NCBI RefSeq assembly: GCF_006345805.1 | Contig: NC_043010.1 | Location: 63,798,001 to 63,862,000, forward strand | DNA from: Octopus sinensis | Lineage: Eukaryota | DNA: 64,000 nt | Direction: 5' to 3' | Shown: one piece after another, positions 3,819-61,348 of the stretch | Layout: every line of letters starts with the position of its first letter | Position numbering within the stretch: position 1 is the first letter of the stretch | The notes under the pieces: model-generated | Databases searched by the model: none | What the model was told of the DNA's origin: nothing | Seen by the model: the letters and a program-made list of their open reading frames with translations, nothing else | Translations under genes and position numbers: made by a program

Positions 3819-4502
3819 CTAAGAAGGACTCGTACTTGAACCAGCTTCCATTTCTCGGTGAACTATGGCAATAGTGTTCTTCATTTTGCTCCAGTTTACA
3901 ATCTCTGGAAATTCTCTGAGCGCTGTCAAAAGTTTTACTACTGCACCAGGCAAGAGACCGTCTGCTTGTCTCCAGGTATTAAATACTTTGAACTTCTGTA
4001 TGAACTCATTATCAGTTTCCTTAGCGTCAGTAATTTTCACAAAATCAAGACCTAATTCGATAATTACAGCTTCCCAACCACTAGCCACATGCATTAAGAC
4101 ACGAGCAAGCATTTTCTCGTCTAGATCTAAATCTTTAGTACTATCAATAATGGCATCCACTTCTAGGTCTACCAACGGTGAATTGTCAGTTTCTTCCACC
4201 AGTGTGGCCAAAGAATCTAATTCGCTTTCTCTCAGACACTTCAAAAATTCATCAAATATCCTAGAAATATTACTTCTGTCCTCATGTTTCATTTTCTCAA
4301 GAAGGAAATTGAGAAAACATCGATTTTTTCTTTCTATAATTGGCTCTGCTTCAACAGTATGCACTTCCTCCGGAATGAAGATTGAACTTGCAAAGAAGTA
4401 ATCAAGTATTGACCCTATAACTACTTCATCGATGCCGTCCACAAGTTGTTTGTAACTTCGTTGAATTTTGTTCCCATTGAAAACTTCTTGTGTGTCAGCC
4501 AT
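3819..4502 (-). CDS. CARD + death domain adaptor (RAIDD/CRADD-like architecture), divergent paralog, 227 aa
   Basis: ATG at 4502 (MADTQEV...) aligns with paralog starts. CARD pattern LVDGID..ILDYF..EE..VEAE..RKNRCFLNFL..F.EFLKCLRE..LA; DD pattern LARVLMHVASGWEAVIIELGL..I..FKVFNTWRQ..LLTAL. The 62-codon upstream extension of the ORF is probably untranslated. Confidence 0.85.
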   Translation of the reverse strand: MADTQEVFNGNKIQRSYKQLVDGIDEVVIGSILDYFFASSIFIPEEVHTVEAEPIIERKNRCFLNFLLEKMKHEDRSNISRIFDEFLKCLRESELDSLATLVEETDNSPLVDLEVDAIIDSTKDLDLDEKMLARVLMHVASGWEAVIIELGLDFVKITDAKETDNEFIQKFKVFNTWRQADGLLPGAVVKLLTALREFPEIVNWSKMKNTIAIVHREMEAGSSTSPS

Positions 4503-5462: not shown

Positions 5463-6119
5463 ATGGCTAACAAACAGCAGCTCAGGAACTCAATTAAAAT
5501 TAAACGATGTCGTGAGGATCTTGTGCAGGGGCTTGATGATGTGACTATAAAAAACATGGTTGATCATTTTTTATCTCAATCGTTTATCACCTCCGAGGAA
5601 AAGAATGTAATTCAAGCAAAAGAGACTGAACAAGAAAAAGCTCGGAAATTACTAGACGTTATTCACCGCAAAGTGGAAAGCCAGGATAAACAGAATAAGT
5701 CAAAATTATTCAATGGATTTGTGAAATGTCTAAGAGAACATAACCCGAGTTTAGCAACAACCGTGGAAAATGCTGATGACAGTGTGCCGAATGACGAAAG
5801 TGACAAAAGTAATATCCTTGAACGTGTTAAAAATATAGATTTGAATGAGAAAATGTTAAATCGTATTTTGATGTTTATAGGCTCTGGATGGGAATCTGTT
5901 GCTGCCGAATTAGATATTGATAGCGTAAAAATTAGTATTGCTAAGGCAAACAACCCACACAGCACACGAAACCAGATGTTTGAGGTATTTAATTTCTGGA
6001 GGCAAAGAGAAACCCTTGGACGTGGTGGATTAACAAAACTTATAAAAGCCATCAATTACTGTTCTGTTCATTGCAATTTCAACATGAATAAAATACTTGA
6101 ATGTATTGAAGACCCTTAA
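5463..6119 (+). CDS. CARD + death domain adaptor, copy A, 218 aa
   Basis: CARD motif (LVQGLD..MVDHFLSQ..EEK..IQAKET..EKARKLLD..F..CLREHNPSLA) followed by DD motif (LNRIL..IGSGWESVAAELDI..NP..NQMF..F..WRQ..LIKAI); one uninterrupted ORF. Confidence 0.9.
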   Translation: MANKQQLRNSIKIKRCREDLVQGLDDVTIKNMVDHFLSQSFITSEEKNVIQAKETEQEKARKLLDVIHRKVESQDKQNKSKLFNGFVKCLREHNPSLATTVENADDSVPNDESDKSNILERVKNIDLNEKMLNRILMFIGSGWESVAAELDIDSVKISIAKANNPHSTRNQMFEVFNFWRQRETLGRGGLTKLIKAINYCSVHCNFNMNKILECIEDP

Positions 6120-21216: not shown

Positions 21217-21276
<60 letters not shown>

Positions 21277-22218: not shown

Positions 22219-22251
<33 letters not shown>

Positions 22252-26267: not shown

Positions 26268-27290
26268 TGCGGGATACAAAGATGAAGCGTTGGAACAAAC
26301 AGTTAAAAGCTGCCGAATATTCACTCTATGGCGAGTCCTAGCCTCGTGTTGCTTAGTTTTTCCTTGGGGTTGGCCAGATTGGAGCAATCTCAAGGTTAAT
26401 CAGCTAAAATTGCGAGGATGATCTGGTTCTTGACTGAGGATAGACAGCTTCGAATGATGACCCATCCTTGTTATTTTTATATTTTATATCGTCTGTCTGG
26501 ATGTTTTGTTGTCCCTTTTTGTATCACCTGGTTGTCCGGATGTTTTGCGTTCTTGTCCCATTTTGTATTATATATATATATGCAAACCTACATACATCAT
26601 GCATGTACATACCTACGTATGTATATACACATGCATATATGGGTACAAGATGTCAAAAGAACATGAACAACATGAGAAACGAGAACATGAATAAACAAAA
26701 ACATGGAAAACGAACTTTTTTTTGAACTACGAAAGAAACAAATAGAGAAACTACACAGGCAACCTAAAGAACAATCCCTTCATCAGTGCCCTCTGTTTTA
26801 TCTACTCCGCATTTCGGACGTTTAGGGCAAGATGCATCTTCATCAAAACAGTCGTTCCTGCAAAGCAAATTAAATAAAATTTGGGATTTGCGGAGGGTTA
26901 ACGTAACAAAAACAGGACAGTAAGAACAAAGCAGCAAAAGCAAACGGTAAGGACTGTTTAGCCATAATGAAGTGAAGGGGTGAACACTGGAGAAACGAGC
27001 TTTGACAGGAGACAGGCAAAAATGTGTGTTGTCTCTTGTAGCGTAAGGAGGAGAAAGCAAGATAGCCGCTGGTCACGTGTGAGCAACGAGAGAGTCAAGG
27101 AGGAAGAGTGAGGGAGAGATAGAGAACGGTGAAGGGGAGGAGGAGAAATAGAGACAGGGTAGGAGAGAAAGAAAGAATAGAGGCAGATAGTAATATAAGT
27201 GCCGCATCAGAATTATTAAGATAAAACTTACTTGGAAATGGATGCATGGCGTTCGATCATATAATATAAAAATATAAATTATATATGTAT

Positions 27291-28349
27291 TGTTACGGAC
27301 CACCTGCCGTCGTCCGGTCGATCAGCGAATGTTCGCCACGGAAACTCGGAGAGAGAGACAACAACAACTACAACAGCAGCCGCAAGAAGAGATACAGAGG
27401 CAATCGAGAGAGACACAAAGAAGGCAATTGGCTCACATTTAACGTACTAGTTTATATGACTATTAATTATTACATCAAATATATATCAGATACATTTAAA
27501 GAGGACACGTCGAATTAAACAACTCAATACATCATACAGGTATACCACAGATCAAAGCATTTAAACTGTCCGGAGACAACAGTTCTGTTTCAAATCACAT
27601 TAACGTTACAGTTCAAAGGACATTAAAAGCATATACAGTTCAATGTTCGTTACACAGTTCTTTTCAACAACTCTGTACACAATGTCTTTACACAGTTCAC
27701 ATTGTTCTTTTTTTACTGTCTCATTTCTTTTACATTTCAATACATCGATTCTTTTTCCTTCTTTTTCTTCACATATCAATACACAATTCACGTACCTTAG
27801 TTCCTACTATAATAGCCAATGTCTCATACTGTACCCCATCTCTCTTAGCACTGCTAAATCCAACTTGCTAACCGCTTGCCTTGAATTCCAAATCCTCACC
27901 CCTAAATCCAACCGCTCGCCTTGACTACCAAATACCGACTGCCCAAAAACCTCTTGCTCTGTCACTACCCGCAATCTCTCTTAGCTCTGTCGCAATCACT
28001 CTCTCTCTCTCTTAGCTCTGCAATACTCTCTGCCTGTCTTCCTCTGCCCCTCATTCTCTCTCACTCTACTGTCATCTCTCATGACAGCTCCCAGATTCCT
28101 TAATCTGTCTTTCTCAGCCCTTCATCCTCTCACTCTACTGTATCTCTCATGACAAGCCCCCAGATTCCTTAATCTGTCTTTTTCGGCACTCAATATTTCT
28201 CTCACTGTCTCTCACACACTGAACTCTAATTCACCTGACGGGGTCGGGAAGTTTCCCCAGAGCTAATTAATCAACCCGCATCTGGCAGAACAATGGATTC
28301 ATTGCCAAATGTAGGTCGCCGTCAACGGTCCTCAAATTGAACCACAACA
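27291..28349. mobile_element. Possible solo LTR (duplicate at 47116-48174)
   Basis: TGTT...AACA termini, ~1.06 kb, embedded in a TA tract; no clean target-site duplication seen. Confidence 0.35.
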
Positions 28350-29279
28350 ATATATATATGTGCATACACACAGACATTTATTGGAATATAATGCGTTCGT
28401 ATATATATATATACACACACAGAGACATTTATTGGAATATAATGCGTTTGTATATATATAGTCACACACATACACACACATTTATTAGAATATAATGCGT
28501 CTGTATATATGATACATATATAATATAAAACCACATTATAAATAGAAATCTCAAATCGGGAGAAAAGATGGAAAAAGAGAAACTTTCTAGCTTAAAGTAA
28601 CATCATGTCTTTCATTGCCATCCACTGCCACTTCGTCTGTTGTTTTACTATTCTCTGCCTACAGCATGACCGAAACCAAGCGTTTTATTTCATAAGATGA
28701 CAATCTGTCCGTCATTCCCAATAGAAACATTATAGTGAAAGGCACTCGTGGTGCGACTTGCAATGTTGCAATTCGATATTGAAAGTCGAAACGTGAGGAG
28801 GGAATGTTGCACTTGTGAGGAGAGAAGGATTTGGTGAGCGGACAGGATTTGGAGGAGGAACAGGCATTGGTTGCATTGCCGCAAGGCAGCGTAAGCCTTG
28901 CTTGTTCGCAGATTGAGGAAGTGTTTTTGTAGAAGATGCATACACGCACGCACACACGCGCGCGGTATATATCGGTTCAAGGGAGATCACTTTCAGATCT
29001 GAGAATAACATTGTTTGGGAATGAGGTTAAAAAAATGTCCAATTACGTCGGTACTTATATACAAAGAGGAACAACTTTTTTGAAAATAATTATCTCTGTT
29101 TCAGCAGAGTTATATTCTCTAACTTCATTTTATGTTCATTTGGCTTTACTGTAGAAATTGTTGCGAAAATCCCTATATTTTTCCACGTTACATATCTGGT
29201 TTAATGAAATTTCGTTGGACAAGGTGGACCATCACCACACCCCACTTCCGTTTTTTTTTAAATATATAATCAAAACCTA

Positions 29280-30265
29280 GGCAGAGGTAAAGAAGACGCA
29301 GAACATTTAAAAAAATTCCTTGCCAAAGAGATGCAGATGAAACCTGATGAATGGGAAACCAAACTGAAAGAAAGATGGTTCTCTATCCTTCAGCAGATTG
29401 AATTTCAAGAACAATACTCCGAGTTGTTAATTTTGTGCCCGTTCTTAATTAGCACACCAGCACAAAATGCTAATGATGAGCGTGTCTTTTCGAGGATGAA
29501 TGTTCAGTGGACTGATGAACGAAATACGTTGGGTGTGGCTACTGTAGAAGCTATCTTACAATGCACATGGAACCTTAACGGTCAATATAAAGCATTTTAT
29601 AGGCATGTGTTAGAAAACAAGGACCTGTTAACAAAAGTGAACTATAACTGAAGGTAAAGGTTCAAGTTTAATTCTCATGCGGTCTGTTAAGAAAATTTTG
29701 CATGTAAGTTTATCAGTTTTGTTTCTTTGCACGTTCTCCATATGAAACACAACTTTTTAGTCTCTTTCTGTGTTTGGATTAAATAATAATTTTCTAATTT
29801 CTTTCCTTTGCATTTTTCTATTGTCTCTATTGAATAAGAATTTTGCAATGATTTCACTTTCTCAGTATTTCTCTTAGATATCTTTATTGCCGGTATTAAA
29901 TAATAATATTCAAATGCTTTCATACAAAAAGATTTTTTATTCATATTGTCTCTATTTGTCATTGAATAAAAAAAATTACAATGATTTCGATCTAACAGAA
30001 TTTTTTTGCCTATTTCTTTATTTCTGTATTAAAGAAATATTTTCAAATTATTTCACTTTAACAGAATTTTTTTAAAGCTTGTATTAAATGATTTTGAAAT
30101 GATTTTACTTTTGTTTTTCTCATAACCCATTAAAATAATTGCTTTATGTTTTTAACCCTTGTCTCTACTTTTATATAATATATTGTTCTGGGTGTGTCGG
30201 CATGCATAAATTTATATATAGAGAGCTATTTAAAAATGTTCCATATTTCTAATCTGGCAACCCTA
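29280..30265 (+). mobile_element. hAT transposon 3' remnant (dimerisation domain and right TIR)
   Basis: ORF 29331-29651 W...YSEL..L..LISTPAQNANDERVFSRMN..WTDERN.L; element ends TCTGGCAACCCTA (reverse complement of TAGGGTTGCCAGA). Confidence 0.8.
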
Positions 30266-30761
30266 GTTAAGTGTGGGGTTTTTGTTGCGTTGCAACTAGA
30301 AAACGATTAGAAAATATCAATTTGTTCATATTGAACAAAAGGGATGTACTCTTTCCAGTGTGTGTCAGTGCTTTGTGTCTATAAATCAGAATGTTGGATC
30401 AGCGCCAGCGTCAGAGCGTCGGATATGTTATGCAGTATTTCATCCGACTCTCTTTGGTCTGTGTTGAATCTCGTCAATATAAACCTTACGTTTCATCTCT
30501 CCAGAGGCGATGAAATAAAATATCAGTCAAATACGTGGTTCCGTATAAGCGATTCCTCCCGCCACAGTTTTCAGATAGTGCGCATATATTAAAGACAGTT
30601 ATGTTATATAATTGCATATAACTGAATGTTACAGTGAATTGATACGTTATCTATTTTATAGATTTAATAAAAGTTAATTATATTTTAATAATATTTATTT
30701 AGGAACACAAAAGTTTGAAAAAAAATCGTTTTTAAAGAGAAGAAAAGGGTCATTTAATTTG

Positions 30762-31155
30762 TACTCTCTTACTCTTCTACTTGTTTCAGTCATTTGACTG
30801 CGATCATGCTGGAGCACCACCTTTAGTCGAATAAATCGACCCAGGACTTATTCTTTGTAAGCCTAGTACTTATTCTATTAGTCACTTTTTGCTGAACCGC
30901 TAAGTTACGGGGACGTTAACACACCAGCATCGGTTATCGAGCGGTGGTGGGAGGACAAACACACACAAACAACAAACTCATACATATACGACGGGCTTCT
31001 TTCAGTTTCCGTCTACCAAATCCCCTCACAAGGCTTTGATAAGCCCAAGGCTAAAGTAGAAGACACTTGCCCAAGGTGCCACACTGTGGGACTGAACCCA
31101 GAACCATGTGGTTGGGAAGCAGGCTTTTTGCCACACAACCACTCCTGCACCTATG
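30762..31155 (-). mobile_element. tRNA-derived SINE upstream of copy B
   Basis: Reverse complement of the family at 10738. Confidence 0.75.
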
Positions 31156-31497
31156 TAATTTAGAAATTCACTCAGAAACTAAAAGTTTTAGCTTCTCTAA
31201 AATCGATTAAACTGAAAGTCGGAATGCATGGACATAATTATGTTTATTTGAATTAACTTTAATACACGTTTATACTTTGGGCTTAACGACAGTTCTTGCG
31301 TTATAACACCGAGCTGAGCACAAGTTGTATGATACGGAAATGAAATTTATACGCGAAAGTGACCCACATTACAGCATTTTCGAGCGTCAACACATTCAGT
31401 GTGCATGCGCAGACGTCGCTGCATAAAGAAGTTGAACGGCAAACTTTTTTAGTGTATCCACGTAGAAAACTGACTGTCTAATCATACTCAGAGCACG

Positions 31498-32154
31498 ATG
31501 GCTAACAAACAGCAGCTCAGGAACTCAATTAAAATTCAGAAATGTCAGGTGGTACTTGTGGACGGGCTTGATGGTGTGACAGTAACAAAGATTGTTGATC
31601 ATTTTTTATCTCAATTAGTTATCAATGACGAGGAAAAGAATGCAATTCAAGCAAAAGAGACTGAACAAGAAAAAGCTCGGAAATTACTAGACGTTATTCG
31701 CCCCAAAGTGAAAAGCCAGGATAAACAGAATAAGTCAGAATTATTCAATGGATTTGTGGAATGTCTAAGAGAACATAACCCGAGTTTAGCAACAGCCGTG
31801 GAAATTGCTGATGACAGTGTGCCGAATGACGAACTTGACATAGATAATATCCTTGAACGTGTTAAAAATATAGATTTGAATGAGAAAATGTTAAATCGTA
31901 TTTTGATGCGTATGGGCTCTGGATGGGAATCTGTTGCTTCTGAATTAGGTATAGAGAGCATAAAAATTGATAATGTTAGGCAAGACAACCCATACTGCAC
32001 ACATAACCAGAAGTTTGAGGCATTTAATTCCTGGAGAAAAAAACAAGCCCATGGGCGTGGTGCATTAAAAAAACTTATAAAAGCCATCTATTACTGTTCT
32101 GTTAATTGCAATGTAAACATGAATAAAATACTTGAATGTATTGAAGACCCTTAA
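31498..32154 (+). CDS. CARD + death domain adaptor, copy B, 218 aa
   Basis: Colinear without gaps with copy A (about 75% amino-acid identity by hand count); intact ORF. Confidence 0.9.
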   Translation: MANKQQLRNSIKIQKCQVVLVDGLDGVTVTKIVDHFLSQLVINDEEKNAIQAKETEQEKARKLLDVIRPKVKSQDKQNKSELFNGFVECLREHNPSLATAVEIADDSVPNDELDIDNILERVKNIDLNEKMLNRILMRMGSGWESVASELGIESIKIDNVRQDNPYCTHNQKFEAFNSWRKKQAHGRGALKKLIKAIYYCSVNCNVNMNKILECIEDP

Positions 32155-34425
32155 AAAGAAAAGAAGGAAGAATAACGCGCAGTTTTTACAATGTTGTATG
32201 TTAATATATTAAAAAAAATACAGTTTTTCCGATACACTTTTTGATATGGACATAAAGAATCGACACTTCAAAAATGAAATTATCCTACACTAAACGGCAT
32301 AATTCTTGCGTTGTGGACTGATATTAAACATCGACATGCGAAAAGTGAAATAATGCATTATCAACAGACATTATATTTCAATTATTGAATCCTTTTCAAC
32401 GGACAGATTACTTTCGACTTTCACTTTGGGAAGTTGCCGTCTTAAAGTAACATCATGTCAAACGCGGAAGTATGCGACTCTTTCCTTCATTATTTTTATT
32501 GTCGACTAAAACTCTTCACTTTTTGATGTTTACATAAAATTTTTCTATGATAAAAATATATATTATTTTGCTTTAGTATCAACCGCTATAATTTCATTTA
32601 ATTCTATACATATTTTATAACCCTAAATTTAATAGAAATGAAGACTGTCTTATTTAGAGGTAACTCTCTAAGGAAACAACGAACTTCAACGCAATGATAT
32701 AACATTTTGGAACTTATTCTGGGCGATCCATCGGTATAGGTACACACGTGACTTTGTTTAGATTTCTGAAGATAAGAGAAACCCTTTTCTCCCACCACTA
32801 ACCCTAACACAAACTCTAAAAAAAAAACAACACTTTCTTGAAATGTATCCGGTATTTATACCGAAGTTATGCTATTATTCTGTATTGTTGATAATAAACT
32901 TGCTGAAATGGTAAGGATGTAGTTGGATGAATCTGAATTTTCAACCAAAATGAATGAAGGTTTACTTTGTGTGTTTGTAGTGTATGATAAAGATAGAAAG
33001 GCGTGTTACGTGATGGATATTAATGATAAGGTGGTTCTGCAACATTAAAACCAACCTTTCAGCAATGAATTTCCTTTAGAATACAGACATGTATATATGA
33101 TGGATTTAACTGTGCTGGATAGCTACAGAAGGCGCCCTATCGATTTAGATTTTCCCTATACCTTTCTTAAAACGCACATCTTTAATGGCATTTTCTAGAA
33201 ATACGTATTCAATAGTGTTGATTGCGAATAAATTTATTGTTAAAAAAATTGTTAAGACCATTGTAAGATATAACGTATCTCTTGAAAATTTCGTTAAACG
33301 TATGATTTTAACAAAGTTCGGTGGAAAGCGCAAAAGAAAACGAAACAACTTGTTTTACATCCACCAGAAAAACCCCTTTATATTTAATTTTTAATTATTC
33401 TTTTTAATGAAAACCTCCGTTTTCGGGTACAGAGTATACGAATCTGGAAAAAAGAAAAAAAAGTGTCCAAAATTGGCATTTCAGAATTTCAGTTCCCAGC
33501 AATTTTTCCATTAATCACATTTTTCAGAATTAAAAAAACTTTTAAATTATTATTTTCTTTACTTTTTTTTTACCAAATGTGTGAAAAAATACGGAGATTA
33601 TGATTCTCAAAAAAATTTTTGTAAAATTTCAAAAAAAAACCCCAAATATTACCCCCGTCCCCCTCGCAGTTTACAGCATAAACTAGAAGTTTTGAAACCC
33701 CTTTTGTCATTGCACATGCGTTGACTGCTACTTGAAAAGAGATACTTTGGAAGTTGTGCGGTGATGGGGGGGGGGGCGATATGCGGAAAAGGTTTTTAAA
33801 ATTCTTAAAATTTTATTTTCGGTTTTAAAATGCGGACGGCCCGAATCTGTTGTTCGTTTCCCTTTACCATTTCGAAAGAACTTTTTAAATATTTCGAAAT
33901 CAAAATTGGTTGCACATGGTGGATATGTAACCCATCCGCTTCCTGTACATTAAATTTGCCTTCAATCAGTCTATCCACATGCTAGAAATAACAGCCAGTT
34001 CTCACACAAACTCTTATTCGCACATATTTTTTAATAAAAGTTTTTGCATATACGCCTAGGAGTCGATTGGGGATGAGCTTCGACAAAACTGCCATACTGG
34101 CCGGTTTTGTTTCTTGGCGATAAAATTTCAGAGAAATTTTCTGCATTAAAAAAAGGTATTATAAAAAAGTTAAAATAATAACTTATTGCCAGGTACTTGG
34201 GCATCTAGCCTAAGAAATGCATTGCCTATCTTGTAAAACTATACTGAGCCAAATTTAGAAAGTGAAGTGGGCCGCAAGATCTCACTCAGTGCGTAGGTTT
34301 CTGTGCAACAAGAAAAGTTGTAAGAAGTCGGCGAAAAACCAAATACCACTTCGGAAAGGAACTTGGTTTGGTCATAGCAATTTGTCTGGCAAAATGTTAA
34401 AATAAAGTGTTCATTTTTCATTTGT

Positions 34426-35206
34426 TCTTAAAGAGTTGTTAAAGGAAACCCTCATTGCATGCTAGAAGCAGGTATGGCTGAGTGCGTCCAGGACTATGAG
34501 AGATTCTCACCTGAAGATATTCAGCATGAGACTGTCAGCAATTCAGTGAAACTGGGAAAGGTTTTGATGACATCACACAAGAAGAGGTCAACGATATGTT
34601 GGATTTAACGAAGTCTGCCAGCAAAGTGGAGGCAGAAGCGCCAGATCCAGAGGAAGAGGAGGATGTGGTGGGCCTGGCAATTGAACATCTATCTGACCTT
34701 TTAAGGACAGCAAAGGAATTGCAAGGGAAGGCTGAAACAGGGGATCCCTATATGGTTCGGTCTCTCCAATTTAAAAAAGCTGTCGATGTGGCTATGCAGA
34801 CATATAAAACACTCCTCACCATCTTGAAGAAACAACGACACCAACTTCCCATTACAACGTTCCTCAAACTCACCAAGAAAACCTTGCATGAAGATACGAT
34901 ATCCCCTAAAACATCTCAAGAAGGGACGTCACCAGAAGAGCTTTAAATGTTTGCTGTGCAGTAATTACCTTTATTATTTTCATCGTCGTCTTAAATCAGT
35001 ATCATTCATTATTGGTGAGTAAACATACATTTTACATCATTCTTAATTAAATCATTATTAAATATTATGTGCAGGTGTGTGTGTAATATTTTAAGTTATA
35101 TTTTGACATTTATAGGCATTTTATAGACCACATCCGATATTCACGCATTTTCAGTATTTGTGGGAGCTCGGGGAATGTAACAAGCATGAACACCGGGGGA
35201 TGACTG
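34426..35206 (+). mobile_element. Tigger/pogo-like transposon 3' portion with TIR
   Basis: Near-identical to 63728-64000; ORF 34596-34946 resembles a transposase C-terminus; ends CGGGGGATGACTG followed by TA. Confidence 0.75.
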
Positions 35207-38225: not shown

Positions 38226-38780
38226 ATGATGGCTGCCTTACAGCAAATGTCGAACGCAAAGATAATTCAGCGATATTATGAGGTTCTTGTGAATAGTTTA
38301 GATAGTGTGGGTATAAAAAAGATTATTGATCGTCTTTTGAGTCATTCATTAATTTTGATCGAGAACAAGAATGAGATTCAAACAGAAAAAACCCCCGAAG
38401 ATAAATCTCGGAAATTACTCGATATCATTTTAAATCAAGTGAGAACCGAGGACAATGAGAATAAGTCGGAATTTTTTGACGAATTCATGAAAGTTCTAAA
38501 TGAAGTCGACAAAAATTTGGCATCATCCATGAAGAAGGAAGCTGAGGAGAAAGCTAAGAAGGAAGCTGAGGAGAAAGCTAAGAAGGAAGCTGAGGAGAAA
38601 GCTAAGAAGGAAGCTGAGGAGAAAGCTAAGAAAGAAGCTGAGGAGAAAGCTAAGAAGGAAGCTGAGGAGAAAGCTAAGAAGGAAGCTGAGGAGAAAGCTA
38701 AGAAGGAAGCTGAGGAGAAAGCTAAGAAAGAAGCTGAAGAGAAAGCTGAGGAGGAAGAAACACTCGCGGCCCTAATGTGA
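38226..38780 (+). CDS. CARD-only paralog with a (KKEAEEKA)9 charged tail, 184 aa (copy D)
   Basis: First ~102 aa align to the family CARD (LVNSLD..IIDRLLS..IQTEKTPEDKSRKLLD..F.EFMKVL); shares upstream and downstream flanks with the other copies. Confidence 0.75.
   Translation: MMAALQQMSNAKIIQRYYEVLVNSLDSVGIKKIIDRLLSHSLILIENKNEIQTEKTPEDKSRKLLDIILNQVRTEDNENKSEFFDEFMKVLNEVDKNLASSMKKEAEEKAKKEAEEKAKKEAEEKAKKEAEEKAKKEAEEKAKKEAEEKAKKEAEEKAKKEAEEKAKKEAEEKAEEEETLAALM
38532..38747 (+). repeat. In-frame 24 bp minisatellite, 9 units
   Basis: AAGAAGGAAGCTGAGGAGAAAGCT; units 5 and 9 carry the AAGAAAGAA variant. Confidence 0.95.
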
Positions 38781-45348: not shown

Positions 45349-45463
45349 ATGTCTGGAATACAGCAGTTGTTGAATACAACTATAATTCAGCGAAGTTATA
45401 GGGAACTTGTGGAGAGTTTTGAAAGTGTGACTATACAAAGAATCATCGATTACCTTTTGATTC
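45349..45463 (+). pseudogene. 5' stub of another CARD-family gene (copy E), truncated by a retroelement
   Basis: Translates as MSGIQQLLNTTIIQRSYRELVESFESVTIQRIIDYLLI, homologous to the family N-termini, with the family upstream sequence; homology stops at TGTAGTG (45464). Confidence 0.85.
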
Positions 45464-46135
45464 TGTAGTGTAGAGAAGGACCGGAACTAAGGTAGTACGC
45501 ATGTCCTGTCGGAAGTGGGGACTGTGGGTCCCACCAGAATGGCCGCAGTGGGCATGCGGTGTTGGCGAAATGTAAGCAGTAAGTTGGCAGTGGATAGCGT
45601 ACGAGAGCAGACCTGTTAGATGGTACGGCGACAGACAGAGTACGCGGACATTGTGAGTGACCCTTCCAGATCGATAGGTAAGACTACCGCAATTCTCCCT
45701 CTGCTTCTGTCTTTTCCTCCTTCACATCACAAGCTATTTCGGCTCAAAAGGAAAAAAAAAAATGATTGGTATGGTTCCTGTTTCGAACGAGACGTTTAGG
45801 CTATTTTGCGGCGAGGGAGACACCGCCGCTTGGTTGATAAAAATTAAGTTGGTGGCAAGACACCACGGTATATATGACCTACCGAGTTTCATTCCATTGT
45901 ACCTCGATGGATCGGCGTTGGCACTATACCTGGAAATAGAGGAGAAGGACCAGTTAAGCGAAGAAAAAATAGATGTTCGGCTGATAGAGGCTTTTACGGA
46001 AGGGTCATTTATGGCATATGGTTCACTGGGGAAAGCAAAGTGGACGAGTGAAGAGGTCGACGTGTTTGCCACGTCAGGAGATTGGCCAGACTTGCGGGAT
46101 ACAAAGATGAAGCGTTGGAACAAACAGTTAAAAGC
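45464..46135 (+). mobile_element. Gypsy-like LTR retrotransposon 5' part (probable LTR and gag fragment)
   Basis: Starts with TG; ORF 45762 F.GEGD..AWL.K.KLVA....LPSFIPLYLDG.ALALYLE...VDVFA, continuing RRLARLAG after a frameshift, resembles Gypsy gag. Confidence 0.7.
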
Positions 46136-49104
46136 TGCCGAATATTCACTCTATGGCGAGTCCTAGCCTCGTGTTGCTTAGTTTTTCCTTGGGGTTGGCC
46201 AGATTGGAGCAATCTCAAGGTTAATCAGCTAAAATTGCGAGGATGATCTGGTTCTTGACTGAGGATAGACAGCTTCGAATGATGACCCATCCTTGTTATT
46301 TTTATATTTTATATCGTCTGTCTGGATGTTTTGTTGTCCCTTTTTGTATCACCTGGTTGTCCGGATGTTTTGCGTTCTTGTCCCATTTTGTATTATATAT
46401 ATATATGCAAACCTACATACATCATGCATGTACATACCTACGTATGTATATACACATGCATATATGGGTACAAGATGTCAAAAGAACATGAACAACATGA
46501 GAAACGAGAACATGAATAAACAAAAACATGGAAAACGAACTTTTTTTTGAACTACGAAAGAAACAAATAGAGAAACTACACAGGCAACCTAAAGAACAAT
46601 CCCTTCATCAGTGCCCTCTGTTTTATCTACTCCGCATTTCGGACGTTTAGGGCAAGATGCATCTTCATCAAAACAGTCGTTCCTGCAAAGCAAATTAAAT
46701 AAAATTTGGGATTTGCGGAGGGTTAACGTAACAAAAACAGGACAGTAAGAACAAAGCAGCAAAAGCAAACGGTAAGGACTGTTTAGCCATAATGAAGTGA
46801 AGGGGTGAACACTGGAGAAACGAGCTTTGACAGGAGACAGGCAAAAATGTGTGTTGTCTCTTGTAGCGTAAGGAGGAGAAAGCAAGATAGCCGCTGGTCA
46901 CGTGTGAGCAACGAGAGAGTCAAGGAGGAAGAGTGAGGGAGAGATAGAGAACGGTGAAGGGGAGGAGGAGAAATAGAGACAGGGTAGGAGAGAAAGAAAG
47001 AATAGAGGCAGATAGTAATATAAGTGCCGCATCAGAATTATTAAGATAAAACTTACTTGGAAATGGATGCATGGCGTTCGATCATATAATATAAAAATAT
47101 AAATTATATATGTATTGTTACGGACCACCTGCCGTCGTCCGGTCGATCAGCGAATGTTCGCCACGGAAACTCGGAGAGAGAGACAACAACAACTACAACA
47201 GCAGCCGCAAGAAGAGATACAGAGGCAATCGAGAGAGACACAAAGAAGGCAATTGGCTCACATTTAACGTACTAGTTTATATGACTATTAATTATTACAT
47301 CAAATATATATCAGATACATTTAAAGAGGACACGTCGAATTAAACAACTCAATACATCATACAGGTATACCACAGATCAAAGCATTTAAACTGTCCGGAG
47401 ACAACAGTTCTGTTTCAAATCACATTAACGTTACAGTTCAAAGGACATTAAAAGCATATACAGTTCAATGTTCGTTACACAGTTCTTTTCAACAACTCTG
47501 TACACAATGTCTTTACACAGTTCACATTGTTCTTTTTTTACTGTCTCATTTCTTTTACATTTCAATACATCGATTCTTTTTCCTTCTTTTTCTTCACATA
47601 TCAATACACAATTCACGTACCTTAGTTCCTACTATAATAGCCAATGTCTCATACTGTACCCCATCTCTCTTAGCACTGCTAAATCCAACTTGCTAACCGC
47701 TTGCCTTGAATTCCAAATCCTCACCCCTAAATCCAACCGCTCGCCTTGACTACCAAATACCGACTGCCCAAAAACCTCTTGCTCTGTCACTACCCGCAAT
47801 CTCTCTTAGCTCTGTCGCAATCACTCTCTCTCTCTCTTAGCTCTGCAATACTCTCTGCCTGTCTTCCTCTGCCCCTCATTCTCTCTCACTCTACTGTCAT
47901 CTCTCATGACAGCTCCCAGATTCCTTAATCTGTCTTTCTCAGCCCTTCATCCTCTCACTCTACTGTATCTCTCATGACAAGCCCCCAGATTCCTTAATCT
48001 GTCTTTTTCGGCACTCAATATTTCTCTCACTGTCTCTCACACACTGAACTCTAATTCACCTGACGGGGTCGGGAAGTTTCCCCAGAGCTAATTAATCAAC
48101 CCGCATCTGGCAGAACAATGGATTCATTGCCAAATGTAGGTCGCCGTCAACGGTCCTCAAATTGAACCACAACAATATATATATGTGCATACACACAGAC
48201 ATTTATTGGAATATAATGCGTTCGTATATATATATATACACACACAGAGACATTTATTGGAATATAATGCGTTTGTATATATATAGTCACACACATACAC
48301 ACACATTTATTAGAATATAATGCGTCTGTATATATGATACATATATAATATAAAACCACATTATAAATAGAAATCTCAAATCGGGAGAAAAGATGGAAAA
48401 AGAGAAACTTTCTAGCTTAAAGTAACATCATGTCTTTCATTGCCATCCACTGCCACTTCGTCTGTTGTTTTACTATTCTCTGCCTACAGCATGACCGAAA
48501 CCAAGCGTTTTATTTCATAAGATGACAATCTGTCCGTCATTCCCAATAGAAACATTATAGTGAAAGGCACTCGTGGTGCGACTTGCAATGTTGCAATTCG
48601 ATATTGAAAGTCGAAACGTGAGGAGGGAATGTTGCACTTGTGAGGAGAGAAGGATTTGGTGAGCGGACAGGATTTGGAGGAGGAACAGGCATTGGTTGCA
48701 TTGCCGCAAGGCAGCGTAAGCCTTGCTTGTTCGCAGATTGAGGAAGTGTTTTTGTAGAAGATGCATACACGCACGCACACACGCGCGCGGTATATATCGG
48801 TTCAAGGGAGATCACTTTCAGATCTGAGAATAACATTGTTTGGGAATGAGGTTAAAAAAATGTCCAATTACGTCGGTACTTATATACAAAGAGGAACAAC
48901 TTTTTTGAAAATAATTATCTCTGTTTCAGCAGAGTTATATTCTCTAACTTCATTTTATGTTCATTTGGCTTTACTGTAGAAATTGTTGCGAAAATCCCTA
49001 TATTTTTCCACGTTACATATCTGGTTTAATGAAATTTCGTTGGACAAGGTGGACCATCACCACACCCCACTTCCGTTTTTTTTTAAATATATAATCAAAA
49101 CCTA

Positions 49105-50090
49105 GGCAGAGGTAAAGAAGACGCAGAACATTTAAAAAAATTCCTTGCCAAAGAGATGCAGATGAAACCTGATGAATGGGAAACCAAACTGAAAGAAAGA
49201 TGGTTCTCTATCCTTCAGCAGATTGAATTTCAAGAACAATACTCCGAGTTGTTAATTTTGTGCCCGTTCTTAATTAGCACACCAGCACAAAATGCTAATG
49301 ATGAGCGTGTCTTTTCGAGGATGAATGTTCAGTGGACTGATGAACGAAATACGTTGGGTGTGGCTACTGTAGAAGCTATCTTACAATGCACATGGAACCT
49401 TAACGGTCAATATAAAGCATTTTATAGGCATGTGTTAGAAAACAAGGACCTGTTAACAAAAGTGAACTATAACTGAAGGTAAAGGTTCAAGTTTAATTCT
49501 CATGCGGTCTGTTAAGAAAATTTTGCATGTAAGTTTATCAGTTTTGTTTCTTTGCACGTTCTCCATATGAAACACAACTTTTTAGTCTCTTTCTGTGTTT
49601 GGATTAAATAATAATTTTCTAATTTCTTTCCTTTGCATTTTTCTATTGTCTCTATTGAATAAGAATTTTGCAATGATTTCACTTTCTCAGTATTTCTCTT
49701 AGATATCTTTATTGCCGGTATTAAATAATAATATTCAAATGCTTTCATACAAAAAGATTTTTTATTCATATTGTCTCTATTTGTCATTGAATAAAAAAAA
49801 TTACAATGATTTCGATCTAACAGAATTTTTTTGCCTATTTCTTTATTTCTGTATTAAAGAAATATTTTCAAATTATTTCACTTTAACAGAATTTTTTTAA
49901 AGCTTGTATTAAATGATTTTGAAATGATTTTACTTTTGTTTTTCTCATAACCCATTAAAATAATTGCTTTATGTTTTTAACCCTTGTCTCTACTTTTATA
50001 TAATATATTGTTCTGGGTGTGTCGGCATGCATAAATTTATATATAGAGAGCTATTTAAAAATGTTCCATATTTCTAATCTGGCAACCCTA
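49105..50090 (+). mobile_element. hAT 3' remnant (duplicate)
   Basis: Duplicate of 29280-30265. Confidence 0.8.
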
Positions 50091-51322
50091 GTTAAGTGTG
50101 GGGTTTTTGTTGCGTTGCAACTAGAAAACGATTAGAAAATATCAATTTGTTCATATTGAACAAAAGGGATGTACTCTTTCCAGTGTGTGTCAGTGCTTTG
50201 TGTCTATAAATCAGAATGTTGGATCAGCGCCAGCGTCAGAGCGTCGGATATGTTATGCAGTATTTCATCCGACTCTCTTTGGTCTGTGTTGAATCTCGTC
50301 AATATAAACCTTACGTTTCATCTCTCCAGAGGCGATGAAATAAAATATCAGTCAAATACGAGGTTCCGTATAAGCGATTCCTCCCGCCACAGTTTTCAGA
50401 TAGTGCGCATATATTAAAGACAGTTATGTTATATAATTGCATATAACTGAATGTTACAGTGAATTGATACGTTATCTATCTTATAGATTTAATAAAAGTT
50501 AATTATATTTTAATAATATTTATTTAGGAACACAAAAGTTTGAAAAAAAATCGTTTTTAAAGAGAAGAAAAGGGTCATTTAATTTGTACTCTCTTACTCT
50601 TCTACTTGTTTCAGTCATTTGACTGCGATCATGCTGGAGCACCACCTTTAGTCGAATAAATCGACCCAGGACTTATTCTTTGTAAGCCTAGTACTTATTC
50701 TATTAGTCACTTTTTGCTGAACCGCTAAGTTACGGGGACGTTAACACACCAGCATCGGTTATCGAGCGGTGGTGGGGGGACAAACACACACAAACAACAA
50801 ACTCATACATATACGACGGGCTTCTTTCAGTTTCCGTCTACCAAATCCCCTCACAAGGCTTTGATAAGCCCAAGGCTAAAGTAGAAGACACTTGCCCAAG
50901 GTGCCACACTGTGGGACTGAACCCAGAACCATGTGGTTGGGAAGCAGGCTTTTTGCCACACAACCACTCCTGCACCTATGTAATTTAGAAATTCACTCAG
51001 AAACTAAAAGTTTTAGCTTCTCTAAAATCGATTAAACTGAAAGTCGGAATGCATGAACATAATTATGTTTATTTGAATTAACTTTAATACACGTTTATAC
51101 TTTGGGCTTAACGACAGTTCTTGCGTTATAACTCCGAGCTGAGCACAAGTTGTATGATATGGAAATGAAATTTATACGTGAAATTGACCCACATTACAGC
51201 ATTTTCGAGCGTCACCACATTCAGTGTGCATGCGCAGACGTCGCTGCATAAAGAAGTTGAACGGCAAATTTTTTTAGTGTATCCACGTAGAAAACTGACT
51301 GTCTAATCATACTCAGAGCACG

Positions 51323-51978
51323 ATGGCTAACAAACAGCAGCTCAGGAACTCAATTAAAATTAAACGATGTCGTAATGATCTTGTGCATGGGCTTGATGAT
51401 GTGACTATAAAAAACATGGTTGATCATTTTTTATCTCAATCGTTTATCAATGACGAGGAAAAGAATGGAATTCAAGTAGAAAAGACTCCACAAGACAAAG
51501 CTCGGAACTTACACGACGTTATTCGCCGCAAAGTGGAAAGCCAGGATAAACAGAATAAGTCAAAAATATTCGATGGATTTGTGAAATGTCTAAGAGAACA
51601 TAACCCGAGTTTAGCATTAACCGTGGAAAATGCTGATGACAGTGTGCCGAATGACGAACTTGACATAGATAATATCCTTGAACGTGTTAAAAATATAGAT
51701 TTGAATGAGAAAATGTTAAATCGTATTTTGATGCGTATGGGCTCTGGATGGGAATCTGTTGCTTCTGAATTAGGTATAGAGAGCATAAAAATTGATAATG
51801 TTAGGCAAACAACCCACACAGCACACATAACCAGAAGTTTGAGGCATTTAATTCCTGGAGAAAAAAACAAGCCCATGGGCGTGGTGCATTAACAAAACTT
51901 ATAAAAGCCATCAATTACTGTTCTGTTAATTGCAATGTAAACATGAATAAAATACTTGAATGTATTATGGACCCTTAA
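51323..51978 (+). pseudogene. CARD + DD copy C with a -1 frameshift in the death domain (189 aa as assembled)
   Basis: One base missing near 51803-51810; the original frame continues NPHSTHNQKF...KILECIMDP* to 51978. Confidence 0.8.
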
Positions 51979-54900
51979 AAAGAAAAGAAGGAAGAATAAC
52001 GCGCAGTTTTTACAATGTTGTATGTTAATATATAAAAAAAAATACAGTTTCTCCGATACACTTTTTGATATGGACATAAAGAATCGACACTTCAAAAATG
52101 AAATTATCCTACACTAAACGGCATAATTCTTACGTTGTGGACTGATATTAAACATCGACATGCGAAAAGCGAAATAATGCATTATTAACAGACATTATAT
52201 TTCAATTATTGAATCCTTTTCAACGGACAGATTACTTTCGACTTTCACTTTGGAAAGTTGCCGTCTTAAAGTAACATCATGTCAAACGCGGAAGTATGCG
52301 ACTCTTTCCTTCATTATTTTTATTGTCGACTAAAACCCTTCACTTTTTGATATTTACATAAAATTTTTCTATGATAAAAATATATATTTTTTGCTTTAGT
52401 ATCAACCGCTATAATTTCATTTAATTCTATACATATAAGATATATATTTTATAACCCTAAATTTAATAGAAATGAAGACTGTCTTATTTGGAGGTAACTC
52501 TCTAAGGAAACAACGAACTTCAACGCAATGATATAACATTTTGGAACTTATTCTGGGCGATCCTTCGGTATAGGTACACACGTGACTTTGTTTAGATTTC
52601 TGAAGATAAGAGAAACCCTTTTCTCCCACCACTAACCCTAACACAAACTCTAAAAAAAAAACAACACTTTCTTGAAATGTATCCGGTATTTATACCGAAG
52701 TTATGCTATTATTCTGTATTGTTGATAATAAACTTGCTGAAATGGTAAGGATGTAGTTGGATGAATCTGAATTTTCAACCAAAATGAATGAAGGTTTACT
52801 TTGTGTGTTTGTAGTGTATGATAAAGATAGAAAGGCGTGTTACGTGATGGATATTAATGATAAGGTGGTTCTGCAACATTAAAACCAACCTTTCAGCAAT
52901 GAATTTCCTTTAGAATACAGACATGTATATATGATGGATTTAACTGTGCTGGATAGCTACAGATTTTGATTTTCCCTATACCTTTCTTAAAACGCACATC
53001 TTTAATGGCATTTTCTAGAAATACGTGTTCAATAGTGTTGATTGCGAATAAATTTATTGTTAAAAAAATTGTTAAGACCATTGTAAGATATAACGTATCT
53101 CTTGAAAATTTCGTTAAACGTATGATTTTAACAAAGTTTGGTGGAAAGCGCAAATGATTCTCCCAAGAAAACGAAACAACTTGTTTTTCATCCGCAAAAA
53201 AAAAAACCCCTTTATATTTAATTTTTAATTATTCTTTTTAATGAAAACCTCCGTTTTCGGGTACAGAGTTTACGAATCTAGAAAAAAAAAAAAAGTGGCC
53301 CAAATCGGCATTTCAGAATTTCAGTTCCCAGCAATTTTTCAATAAGTCACTTTTTTTCAGAATTAAAGAATTGTTTAAATATTATTTTATTTACTTTTAT
53401 CTTTTACCAAATGTGTGGGAAAATACGGAGATTATGATTCTGAAAAATTTTTTTGTAAAATAAAAAAAAAAAAAAATGAAAACATTACCCCCTTCCCCTC
53501 GCAGTTACGGCATAAACTAGAAGTTTTGAAACCCCTTTTGTCATTGCACGTGCGTTGACTGCTACTTGAAAAGTGAAACTTTGGAAGTTGAGCTGTGATG
53601 GGGTGGGGGTGATATTAAGAAAAGGTCTTTGGAATTCTTAAAATTTTATTTTCGGTTTTAAAATGCGGACGGCCCGAATCTGTTGTTCGTTTCCCTTTAC
53701 CATTTCGAAATCAAAATTGGGCGCACATGGCTGATACGTAACCCATCCGCTTCCTGTACATTAAATTTGCCTTCAATCAGTCTATCCACATGCTAGAAAT
53801 AACAGCCAGTTCTCACACAAACTCTTATTCGCACATATTTTTTAATAAAAGTTTTTGCATATACGCCTAGGAGTCGATTGGGGATGAGCTTCGACAAAAC
53901 TGCCATACTGGCCGGTTTTGTTTCTTGGCGATAAAATTTCAGAGAAATTTTCTGCGTTAAAAAAAGGTATTATAAAAAAGTTAAAATAATACCTTATTGC
54001 CAGGTACTTGGGCATCTAGCCTAAGAAATGCATTGCCTATCTTATAAAACTATACTGAGCCAAATTTAGAAAGTGAAGCGGGCCGCCAAATCTCACTCAG
54101 TGCATAGGTTTCTGTGCAACAAGAAAAGTTGTAAGAAGTCGGCGAAAAACCAAATACCACTTCGGAAAGGAACTTGGTTTGGTCATAGCAATTTGTCTGG
54201 CAAAATGTTAAAATAAAGTGTTCATTTTTCATTTGTTCTGTTTTACAACTAAAAGTGTTGGAAATTTCCAAAGTGTCTTTCTTTTTTCTACAAAGTTTGA
54301 AAGGGCTTTTACAAAATAAAATAAAATAAAATAAAAGGAGTACCGAAATAGCAGCCTTGTCTCCAACAAACTCTCTTCACACACACATGTGTATGTGATG
54401 CACATACAAGAAGGATTCGTTGAAAATATCAAAGTAATTTCATGTTACATACCGTTGGAATTTACGGGGAATAAACCTCGGAATTATGTTTTCAACATTG
54501 TATTCCGGGACCCTTGTATTCCATTTCGAAATTTCGCACGATGACAGAAAATGAAACAATATGAGCGTCCATTTACAATACCTGAAAGTGAAATCTGTTG
54601 ACCCAGCAAAATAAAATTTAAAAAATGCTTCCCCGGAGGGTTAGAGAGAGGATTTTCATAGAGAAAGAAATACATAAATTATTTTTTTGCTTGAGTGTAA
54701 TGGAAATAGTTTTGAAAAAATAATTTTTTAGTTTCATTTATTTTTCGTTTGAGTAATAGAAAAATATTTTAGAAAAGATCCCAACCGTAGAGATGTGCTA
54801 AAAAACCCCAGCTAAATCGCCCTTAATATTTTTACCCTAGTGAAACCATATTCAACACCGTATGTATGAATTTATTTCTCTCACCATGCTACATGGCATG

Positions 54901-56617
54901 TTCTTAAAAATCATTTTCTATTGCTCGAACGAAAAATGAATGAATCTAAACATTTTCATTTTTCAAACTATTTTCCATTACACTCAAGCAAAAAAATAAT
55001 TTATGAATTTCTTTGTCTTCGAAAGTTCGCTCCCTCACTTCCTCGAAAAAGAGTTTTCCTGCAAATGTCCTCTTAACCGTAATCTATACCGTTTGAAAGG
55101 TATTTCTATAAAAATTTCATTGAAAGCTAACCATTTTCCTAAACGTTATGAAAGAAAAAAATTGGGATTAATATAAAGATTGACTCCTGTTAACGGGAAA
55201 AAACCCAAAAGATCCAAATCGGGACTAAACAACAAGTGAGAAATGAACGAGAGGGGGCAACGAGAGAGCCTTTACCTGATCTAATTGATCTACCCCGGAT
55301 AACAAAATTCAAATAAAAACATGGATCTCTTCGGTTTGACAGAAAATGAAACAATATGAGCGTCCATGCACAATACCTGAAATTCCCACGATCCGTTTTT
55401 TGTTTTCCTCATAACTTTCATGAAGATTGATGTCTTTGAATGAAATTTTACATAAACACCTTTCAAACAACATAAATTACGATTATAAAGAAATCTGTGG
55501 GGAAAATGTTTTCGGAAGAGATGGAGAGAGTACTGTCGGAAAGTTTACACGATCTGCTTTTTTTGTCCCTCATAACTTTCAGGACCTAGTTTAGCGCCCG
55601 GTCACCAAAATATTTTTTTTTATCACCAGATTCCAATGTTTTTAATGACGGACATTTCAAACATGCAAAAAAAAGAAGTTTTCAAAATTTTTAGTTCCCC
55701 CTCCCCTAAAAATGCATTTTGAAGAAATTTATGAGTAAACACCATCGATTGTAGTTATGCTGGCTGTACTTAATTATTAATATATTAAGATTAATCATTT
55801 TCATCGTTTAATCAACTTTATTGTAGGAACCGTGTATTAAAAATGAATGCGATATGCCGGTGGCGGATCAAAAAGCTATTAAAAAGAATCTACGAAAGTT
55901 AGGATAAATGAAGGCTGTTCCGCGTTGATGAGTACCTGAATATGAATCCAGGTAGTAAAAATGTCACTGAAAAAAAGGGATCATTTCAATCTGACCGACA
56001 GATTTTTTTACATAATTTTTTAAAACTAAACACTTTGAAACTTCGGATATTGGTAGAATGTGTCACATAGAACAGGGTTTGCTCTTAACGCTTTTGACAA
56101 AATTTTGTATATTAAAAGTTATTTCGTTTTAAATTTGTTGTATTTGGGTAATTTTAACCAATCAACGACGTGTATTCAGCTGAAGAAAATTACTGCTGCT
56201 GTTAGTAAACAACAACTTCCGGGTCCACTCCCCTAACAAAACCCTTCTTTAATAACCAGAAATGTTTTTCTTTTAGCAACATAGGTTTGCTGTATCAGGG
56301 TTGATATGAGGCTAAATACCAACAAAATTATTACTGAGACAAACCAACGACGGAGCCTGTATGTGGTTGCATGACCTGCTAGAAAAAGTAGCCAAACATT
56401 TTTTATATACCGAATAGAAAAACCTCTATCCTGTGATATACACGTAGAGTCCATTATGTCTGGGTAGAAAGACGGAATGGTCCCAGTTGGGACGTCTTTG
56501 ATCATATCTGTTGAATCAGATCCAAATCGGGACTAAACAACAAGTGAGAAGGGAACGAGAGAGCCTTTACCTGATCTAACTGATCTACCCCGGATAACAA
56601 AATTCAAATAAAAACAT

Positions 56618-57020
56618 GGACCTTTTCGCTTTGAACGGCAGTGTTTTTAAAATAATTTCCACGAAACTAAACACTTTTAAACTTCGTATCCTGGGAGAAT
56701 GTGTTTATAAAACATCTTTTTCTCTTGGCTTTATTGAGAACATTCTATAGTTTGTAAGATATTTGTTGTTTTTTTTGTTCAATTTCTGCAATTTCAACCA
56801 ATCACTGACGTCTGTTGAGGTGAAAACATTCTGTACCGTATGAATATGTCCCCTTTTTAAGAAACAGATTGGGTTTATTTACATGTGGGAAGAAAAAAAG
56901 ATACCCTATCCTCTAACCCTAAAATAGATTGAAAGGCAATAAATTGATACTAGGGTCATAATTATGGATGTGAATTTCATATGACACCTAGAAAAACTAC
57001 CGTTCAAACCGAAAAGATCG
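56618..57020. mobile_element. MITE, same family as 44777, opposite orientation
   Basis: Degenerate TIRs GGACCTTTTCGCTTTGAACGGCAG / CTACCGTTCAAACCGAAAAGATC; AAAACAT-like flanks. Confidence 0.75.
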
Positions 57021-57268
57021 AAAAACATTACAACCTTTATCTCAGTAATTGCTTTAGCAGAACGTTTCTAGTGAAAACCCTACCAGCAATGAGATCGCCT
57101 TATTTTGGATGGTTGGTTTCAGTATGAATTAATTCCTCTCCTCGATGTTCTCTCCTTTGTGCCGCTGCCTCTTCCATTTCATCTTGCCGCCTTTGCGATG
57201 CTCTCCTACTTGGATATTCTCTTCTCGCTGCTGCTTGCTCTTCTCTTTCATCTCACCGCCTTTGTGCT

Positions 57269-57308
<40 letters not shown>

Positions 57309-60286: not shown

Positions 60287-61348
60287 CAAAGGGGTGGGCA
60301 GAAGACTTTCAAAGAGAAAGAAATTCATAAGCCATATTTTTGCTTTTGAGTGTAATGGAAAAAAGTTTGAAAAATATTTTTTTAGATTCCTTTATAAATT
60401 TATGTATATATACACACACACAGTGTATCGCACTAGTATTATTTGGGGTCAGTGATGACAGATCAAAGATATATATACAAGGGACTGAACGTACATTTTA
60501 ATGCAGCACTCTTTTTAAATCATTGCTATAGTCAACCATACACATTGTTTATTTAAACAGGATTATTTTGAAGGTTGTGAGCCTATATAGCCTCATTGAA
60601 ATTAGGTTACTTCCTGGTCTCTCTCTCGTTATTGTAGTTTAGATTACTGTATCTAGTAGTAATACAAGCTAAATCTTTCAAAACCTGGATTGTTTCTACT
60701 CTCTGCTCAATCTCACATTCGTGCTATGCACATATTAGAAGCAAGGAAGATTATTTTGTATGTTTGTTTGGAAAAAAACTGCGTCCAGTAGTTATCTCGA
60801 TGGTTTTGTTGTGTTGTTTATCGCAGGGTTATGAAAGCCCTAAGATGCCGCCCAAAAGCCCTACACCTTCCAAAGTTTCTGGCAGAGAACCTAAGCACCA
60901 GAAAGAGGTTAGGATGCTCCCTGAGAAGGTACAACAGCTAGATATGCTCTGGGAAAGTAAAAGTTATGCAGCAGTGGGCTGCTATTATGGGGTTAATGAA
61001 AGTACCATATGCTACATAAAGAAGACCGAGGTAGCGATCAGGACTATCGTAGCAGTAAGTGTCTGTGAAAGTGCCCAAAAGATAACGATAGAGAGAAATA
61101 AGCAGTTCGTCAGGATGAAATCCATTAATATATTTATTATAATTATGATCATTTCGTAGTCTAGGAACAACAAAACAAGTGTATCAAAGCAAAAAAAACA
61201 ACAACAACAAAAAACATATACAGGGTTATTTGAAGTTAACACGGGCTGTGATTGGTGCAATGGAAAAAGACGACGAATCGCAGCTTTCTATTTTGTAATC
61301 TGGCCTGTGACTGGTGCTTTGACCGATGCTCAGATCCGCAGCACATTC
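60287..61348 (+). repeat. Local duplicate of ~35935-37038 including a Tigger HTH remnant
   Basis: Colinear high similarity; a third copy at ~61652-62838 matches 35584-36825. Confidence 0.85.

Follow-up and report, generated by a model that had tools for sequence, protein, structure and literature searches.

A mosaic CARD and death-domain adaptor gene in a tandem octopus cluster: probable gene conversion between paralogues and a one-base gap likely to be an assembly error

Short-tract conversion shuffles the MHC class I and plant NLR clusters, whose genes show patchwork coding sequence, an excess of amino-acid change and many alleles. Their products are receptors, whereas the octopus protein considered here is a predicted intracellular adaptor that would relay cell-death signals. 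It resembles CRADD/RAIDD (PIDDosome, caspase-2), which has the same two domains in the same order and a similar size; the differences are that the octopus death domain is only about 21% identical to that of RAIDD, and that octopus has at least five CARD/death-domain copies and two fragments within 64 kb, with many alleles. One study describes CRADD as conserved across molluscs, predicts its binding to molluscan CARD caspases and reports that neither APAF-1 nor PIDD was found (PIDD: in lophotrochozoans); the supplementary table S7 of that study holds CRADD sequences, and the octopus copies may be among them (PMC11463336). A CRADD protein is also listed from O. vulgaris skin mucus in a second paper (PMC11431876). 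The primate CASP1/CARD16/CARD17 locus is likewise a set of tandem death-fold genes with repeated CARD conversion and has duplications, pseudogenes and CARD-only copies (PMC11630849), as copy D of the octopus cluster is CARD-only. According to the same paper, conversion at the primate locus keeps a decoy CARD matched to the protease, whereas in octopus it is the domains of two-domain adaptors that appear to be swapped. A literature search, which reached few subscription journals, found no paper on an octopus CRADD array. Conversion is already known as a mechanism, and an expanded, polymorphic octopus CRADD-like family undergoing it appears to be undescribed.

The stretch analysed here (the window, 64 kb of Octopus sinensis) is animal DNA in which a long AT microsatellite and a single 100-N gap occur, and it carries a tandem cluster of CRADD/RAIDD-like genes in which A, B and C are uninterrupted reading frames (Table 1; for C, in the read contigs described below). 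A degenerate AT-rich microsatellite of about 6 kb (12-17% GC) occupies ~20000-26167, up to the assembly gap. Copies E (3819-4616 side) and A (5463) lie head to head with about 0.9 kb between them and could possibly share a promoter. The CARD-only copy D is a candidate decoy, and upstream of it, at 37460-37647, lies a 190-base repeat of the B/C 3' flank (96% to 52304-52491). No caspase gene was seen within the window. Relatives of these copies bear CRADD-like names in databases: P0002 from O. vulgaris is 95% identical to A, and further ones are P0003 and P0006 (O. bimaculoides) and P0004 (O. sinensis). Protein searches found an A-type and a B-type protein from O. vulgaris and no C-type one.

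Table 1. Features of the cluster, in window coordinates.
Feature	Position	Strand	Description or evidence
Copy A	5463..6119	+	intact, 218 aa
Copy B	31498..32154	+	intact, 218 aa; 96% identity to P0001 (O. vulgaris)
Copy C	51323..51978	+	uninterrupted CARD + death-domain CDS (CRADD/RAIDD-like); lacks one base in the window; X1 contigs give 218 codons
Copy D	38226..38780	+	CARD, then low-complexity tandem KKEAEEKA tail; lacks a death domain; nucleotides ~68% identical to A/B/C
Copy E	3819..4502	-	distant CARD-death-domain-like paralogue, ~40% aa
Fragment	40882-41050		broken, D-like
Fragment	45349-45463		5' piece of another paralogue
CARD of C (aa 13-103), A-type	51359..51631	+	Pfam PF00619 E 1e-10; site patterns, trees; X1 records 1 and 3 agree
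Death domain of C (~aa 115-216), B-type	51665..51969	+	profile, tree, model, fold match
AGGCAA and one-base gap after 51808	51803..51809	+	read contigs have G here
Main switch from A-type to B-type, inter-domain linker	51630..51659	+	MaxChi; bounding sites at most 30 bases apart; model helices
B-like four-base block (Asn43-Asp44) inside the A-type CARD	51450..51453	+	ND in B, P0001 and C; TS in A, P0002 and P0003
'D-like' tract	51477..51514	+	ancestral E53, K54, D58 (also in P0002) and letters private to C
Duplicate with C, 8.2 kb	46093..54239	+	pairs with 26268-34428
Duplicate with B, 8.2 kb	26268..34428	+	starts at first base after the 100-N gap
GTATGG, point where P0004 departs from C	51735..51740	+	aa 1-137 identical; then another death domain

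The domain assignments follow from profiles and from a structural model. A, B and C all exceed the Pfam cut-off for the CARD (PF00619: 48.3, 48.0 and 41.9 bits; cut-off 23.9), and A and B exceed that for the death domain (PF00531: 29.2 and 35.0 bits; cut-off 22.6); in the frame of the window, C scores 17.5 bits for PF00531, below 22.6, the domain being cut by the gap. With an N-terminal CARD, a C-terminal death domain and no catalytic domain, these copies have the architecture of CRADD/RAIDD. The model of B (30-sequence alignment) consists of two helical domains with a mean pLDDT of 86.5; around the switch point it has a helix at residues 95-102 and then helices at 110-113 and 115-122, with lower pLDDT at 101-120. 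The death domain of RAIDD (2o71) is the best death-domain profile match (E 1.2e-4) and also ranks first by fold (TM 0.82 on the target, Foldseek E 0.012, with no match at E <=0.001), and the nearest Atlas clusters are CARD/Death (0.90) and CRADD (0.89). Profile matches to the CARD are headed by NLRC4 and RIPK2, and the RAIDD CARD is absent among the matches listed.

Divergence among A, B and C amounts to 1.4-2.5% in the flanks and 7.5-11.3% in the coding part. Purely synonymous changes make up 4 of 58, 3 of 46 and 1 of 36 differing codons in the three pairs, and dN/dS is 1.51, 1.90 and 1.48 (p 0.11, 0.06 and 0.22, no pair being significant); we infer diversifying selection on the coding part. 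The preliminary description of this DNA, made by a model from the letters, had seen A-like and B-like tracts alternating in C, and these tracts are present and clustered far past what chance would give. The 89 two-state coding sites fall into 19 runs where 57.1 are expected (p 5e-5, 20,000 shuffles), and at the codon level 65 two-state codons fall into 15 runs where 40.9 are expected (p 5e-5). The best single switch lies in the inter-domain linker (MaxChi p 2e-4), and of the 18 tract switches in C, 17 span 30 bases or fewer, among them the main switch. Read contigs of the kind used below are made from 31-letter words, with minor variants merged; switches of 30 bases or fewer are therefore each contained in one such word of the contigs from run X1.

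Outgroup sequences give these tracts a direction. K14, M32 and K88 are common to A and C; the corresponding residues of B, P0003, P0006 and P0007 are Q, I and E. The linker and death domain hold a long series of states common to C, B and P0001. In trees limited to 8 close relatives and drawn from regions picked post hoc, after the sites had been seen, B, P0001 and C form a clade over aa 106-end (96/93) and a grouping of A with C is rejected there (p-AU 0.0004), whereas over aa 50-105 it is the grouping of B with C that is rejected (p-AU 0.003); a B+C clade stands unrejected on aa 1-105 (p-AU 0.078) and on aa 1-42 (p-AU 0.25). With the outgroups considered, most of the patchwork reduces to one event, which at the linker put an A-type CARD in front of a B-type death domain. 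Very short tracts exist as well, partly in A rather than in C: the window's A differs from P0002 at 10 residues, 7 of which (aa 53, 54, 58, 82, 84, 95 and 99) match B and are interleaved with A-type residues, and E53, K54, D58, I82, D84 and L99 are common to C and P0002 where A has the residues of B. A tract of C that had been called D-like (EKTPQDK) is better described in the same terms. Over its 21 bases C differs from D by 5 letters, 4 of them synonymous, and A differs from D by 5 letters too, leaving C no nearer to D than A is; E53, K54 and D58 are moreover found in P0002. The tract is mostly the ancestral state, with A carrying letters of B there. As a donor, D was considered and ruled out, the synonymous letters of the tract mismatching it. 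That exchange between paralogues shuffles this family and that C is a true mosaic, as had been proposed, is borne out by the X1 contigs, the runs and MaxChi tests and the trees.

The preliminary description also proposed that C carries a frameshift produced by an out-of-register exchange, C switching from B to A inside AGGCAA and then returning to B. The letters given for it are correct: A reads aag gca aac aac cca cac agc, B reads agg caa gac aac cca tac tgc, and C in a three-way alignment reads aggcaa-acaacccacacagc. The window's C lacks a base after 51808, and the reading frame ends with a stop at 51892, after 189 aa. The shifted match between A and B is likewise there: among 655 single-base positions of B, only here does a deletion remove 4 mismatches to A; deleting any of the three neighbours of this base removes 3, and no other position reaches that number. 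Furthermore, bwa-like, minimap-like and blastn-like scorings all place the gap of A on B at exactly the missing G.

We then compared this region with sequencing reads, covering positions 51000-52500 at 85% likeness in 4 of 24 listed runs (X1, X8, X2 and X6). The runs come from three studies, X1 and X8 sharing one sample code; all records are contigs rather than single molecules, and gaps in read cover were left out of the evidence. Record 3 of X1 (51533-52206, 675 bases, depth 281.5) has no letter other than those of C and one extra G after 51808, carried by the whole depth (281.5 of 281.5), so that it reads Val-Arg-Gln-Asp-Asn-Pro-His-Ser in an open frame of 218 aa. In this interval C is separated from B by 21 differences and from A by 49, and it has 9 sites that are found in C alone; matching C at every letter, the contig is C. 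Record 1 of X1 (51185-51562) has one other letter, in the 5' flank, and no gap, and the two records reproduce 13 (record 1) and 7 (record 3) coding sites private to C. In the remaining runs all depth at 51808 comes from G-bearing contigs of B/C type together with A-type contigs: 171 + 68.5 = 239.5 in X8, 727.2 + 1301.9 = 2029.1 in X2 and 40.6 + 27 = 67.7 in X6. The G-less form therefore occurs in none of the four runs, in contigs from which minor alleles can drop out, and C's own allele is present at the break in X1 only. Despite the shared sample code, X8 is no test of C, because it lacks the letters of C at 51376, 51388, 51513-14, 51566 and 51967-69.

As a feature of the animal, then, the frameshift finds no support: the X1 contig is C with the G, and the G-less form is missing from all four runs. 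The supposed switch from B to A and back at the break is not supported either: Ser167 is found in P0001, the O. vulgaris orthologue of B, which makes the Cys of B the new state and leaves His166 as the one A-like residue; in X1 the letters for His166 and Ser167 adjoin an intact G, and no out-of-register event is needed to account for them. Nor do the X1 contigs, with their open frame, bear out a second product with an intact CARD and a broken death domain. The preliminary description had named, as results that would speak against it, single-molecule reads with either an intact frame or a non-mosaic sequence. An intact frame is what we see, in short-read contigs rather than in single molecules; the mosaic itself is reproduced by the contigs. 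In our judgement, which is not a computed value, the missing base is quite probably an assembly error. Two origins agree with its location: a consensus error to which A-type reads or an A-rich context contributed, and a real misaligned exchange in a haplotype hidden by the contigs. It is important to note that a random error would rarely hit this one site of 655, and that a vote by misplaced A reads should have overturned the sites private to C, which survived.

C shares an 8.2-kb unit with B, and A shares only about 1.4 kb and short pieces. Taken segment by segment, B-C divergence is 0, 0.4, 2.2, 15.6 (CARD), 2.0 (death domain), 1.0, 10.3 and 1.4%, so that against 15.6% in the CARD six of the seven other segments diverge by 0-2.2%. 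B-type flanks on both sides of the A-type CARD favour, as we see it, conversion over a single unequal crossover. The remaining divergent segment is a second, non-coding island at 53139-53740 (B side ~33319-33926) with about 10% B-C divergence, for which there is no full-length donor within the window; it may be another conversion tract with a donor copy outside the window. At the other end of the unit, 46093-50360 equals 26268-30535, 4,268 bases that are 100% identical and start at the gap edge, inside a repeat-like reading frame at 45762-46166; two origins come into question for this perfect block, homogenisation in the very recent past or the assembly of a contig end from the other copy's reads. 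A further segment of about 9.5 kb, 54240-63723, is found in the C unit only and holds repeats, two of them similar to 36132-37038, and beyond it the duplicate resumes (63724-64000 against 34423-34699, 97.5%).

On balance we favour the reading that C is an intact 218-residue adaptor, a B-type tandem duplicate that received an A-type CARD by gene conversion, the missing base being an assembly error. The mosaic coding sequence is present in the read contigs, the switch lies in the linker, both flanks belong to the B duplicate and the frame of the contig is open. Gene conversion would have put the A-type CARD into the B-type duplicate as a two-sided event, both far flanks being B-type, and shorter exchanges would account for the small tracts at Asn43-Asp44 of C and at aa 53-58 and 82-84 of A. 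The competing account with most to recommend it, though we regard it as unlikely, keeps the G-less form as a real allele of the assembled animal: a strand of A would have paired with C one base off across AGGCAA, and only one of two small loops would have been repaired. The product, at 189 aa, would consist of a CARD and half of a death domain. The coincidence with the shifted A/B match, unique among 655 positions, speaks for such an event, and a heteroduplex could place its gap at this G just as three aligner-type scorings do. A contig of X2 with a net loss of 8 bases (depth 1654) shows that frame-breaking alleles may occur in the family, X1 departs from the window at 51215, a position at which X6 agrees with the window, which would fit two haplotypes, and a heterozygous G-less allele could be hidden in contigs that drop minor variants. 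Against this, the G-less form is found in 0 of 4 runs and X1 has His166 and Ser167 together with the G; an otherwise identical C allele would be required twice, with and without the G, yet the three other runs hold different alleles. At the far end of the scale, we consider it barely credible that polishing built the entire patchwork out of A and B reads. The perfect 4,268-base block and the one-base gap do show assembly trouble here, but the X1 contigs match every coding letter of C, including private sites (13 + 7) that neither A nor B could supply, and this refutes a chimera unless X1 was itself derived from the assembly.

There are two further accounts, and we hold both to be improbable. 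One has no conversion into C and takes C as the sister of B that kept the old CARD while the CARD of B went through a burst of change under selection, the clustering of states then being a matter of uneven rate. The branch of B's CARD is indeed long (0.28-0.38), the B+C clade is unrejected on aa 1-42 and aa 1-105, and very few purely synonymous sites are there to be used. Set against it are the rejection of B+C on aa 50-105 and the timing: the B-C split in the death domain is about as old as the species split (over aa 138-218, P0001 is 3 aa from C and 2 aa from B), yet B equals P0001 across aa 1-76. Together these leave no time for a burst, unless the death domain and flanks were homogenised later, which would again be conversion. 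The other account makes B and C two alleles of one locus, set in tandem by the assembler, with the mosaic arising by allelic recombination. The 4,268 identical bases that begin exactly at the gap and the lack of a C-type protein from O. vulgaris point that way, but no gap interrupts the stretch that holds B and C, the duplicates are 11.7 kb apart with D and the fragments in between, and the duplicate resumes past the 9.5-kb extra segment. The depths in X8 (A-type 68.5, B/C-type 171, one record 36.5) would fit about 2 : 4 copies, a weak hint against alleles, as depth is not copy number.

Our verdict on the family as a whole is that it is a real, conversion-shuffled and very variable family of adaptors. 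By analogy with RAIDD, the protein would use its death domain to bind an upstream partner of the same domain type and its CARD to recruit a CARD caspase, so that a CARD swapped at the linker would leave both folds whole and couple the input of B to the output of A. As a tentative extension, which we think possible but would not bet on, the normally conserved CRADD-type adaptor may in octopuses have become a hypervariable modular array, in which CARD and death domain are swapped between copies and alleles, the wiring from sensor to caspase changes, CARD-only decoys arise and a pathogen-driven arms race is at work; candidate decoys under this extension would be D, the X2 contig whose linker is a net 8 bases short and possibly a real G-less C. 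If it were true, the arms race would run at the main caspase-activating step of molluscs, for which, in PMC11463336, neither APAF-1 nor PIDD was found. If pathogen selection is the driver, the cluster points to an unstudied cephalopod cell-death pathway and offers natural domain swaps for mapping the specificity of CARD and death domain.

The probable assembly error is also relevant to annotators of the locus, as is the protein model P0004. This protein equals C up to codon 137, where GT comes next (51735), and from there on has a death domain of the type seen in P0006 and P0007, which the window does not encode. It leaves C 73 bases before the break and may be a by-product of the assembly error; as we infer, it may be an annotation detour round the frameshift, or else another chimeric copy located elsewhere. 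Splicing from 51735 to a different death domain found no support: record 3 of X1 runs straight through, and among the loose ends listed in X1 or X2 there is none at 51735. No protein of 30-102 residues related to C was found, a size range that excludes truncated forms of 120-190 residues.

The read contigs hold further variation. In X2, record 12, one contig, has the net loss of 8 bases in the linker at 51674-51684; it would break the frame after the CARD and give a CARD-only-like product, and is possibly a frame-breaking allele of another animal. One X2 contig has an 18-base duplication in the linker (51640) that keeps the frame. Relative to the window's C, the A-type death domain of X2, again in one contig, lacks 11 bases and gains 3 (51784-51802, 51863), which makes it three codons shorter with the frame kept. 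In X8, one contig, as resolved by depth subtraction, joins C-like letters at 51477-51508 to A/B letters at 51513-14. None of the 24 listed runs is recorded as RNA; X1 and X2 mostly cover the gene region and at a guess are RNA, and we make no claim about expression. Of eight loose-end motifs, one is found in the window (37430) and seven are not. The DNA runs X8 and X6 have identical loose ends at 51050, 51225, 51545 and 51612 that are absent from the window, and the loose ends suggest further partial copies elsewhere in the genome.
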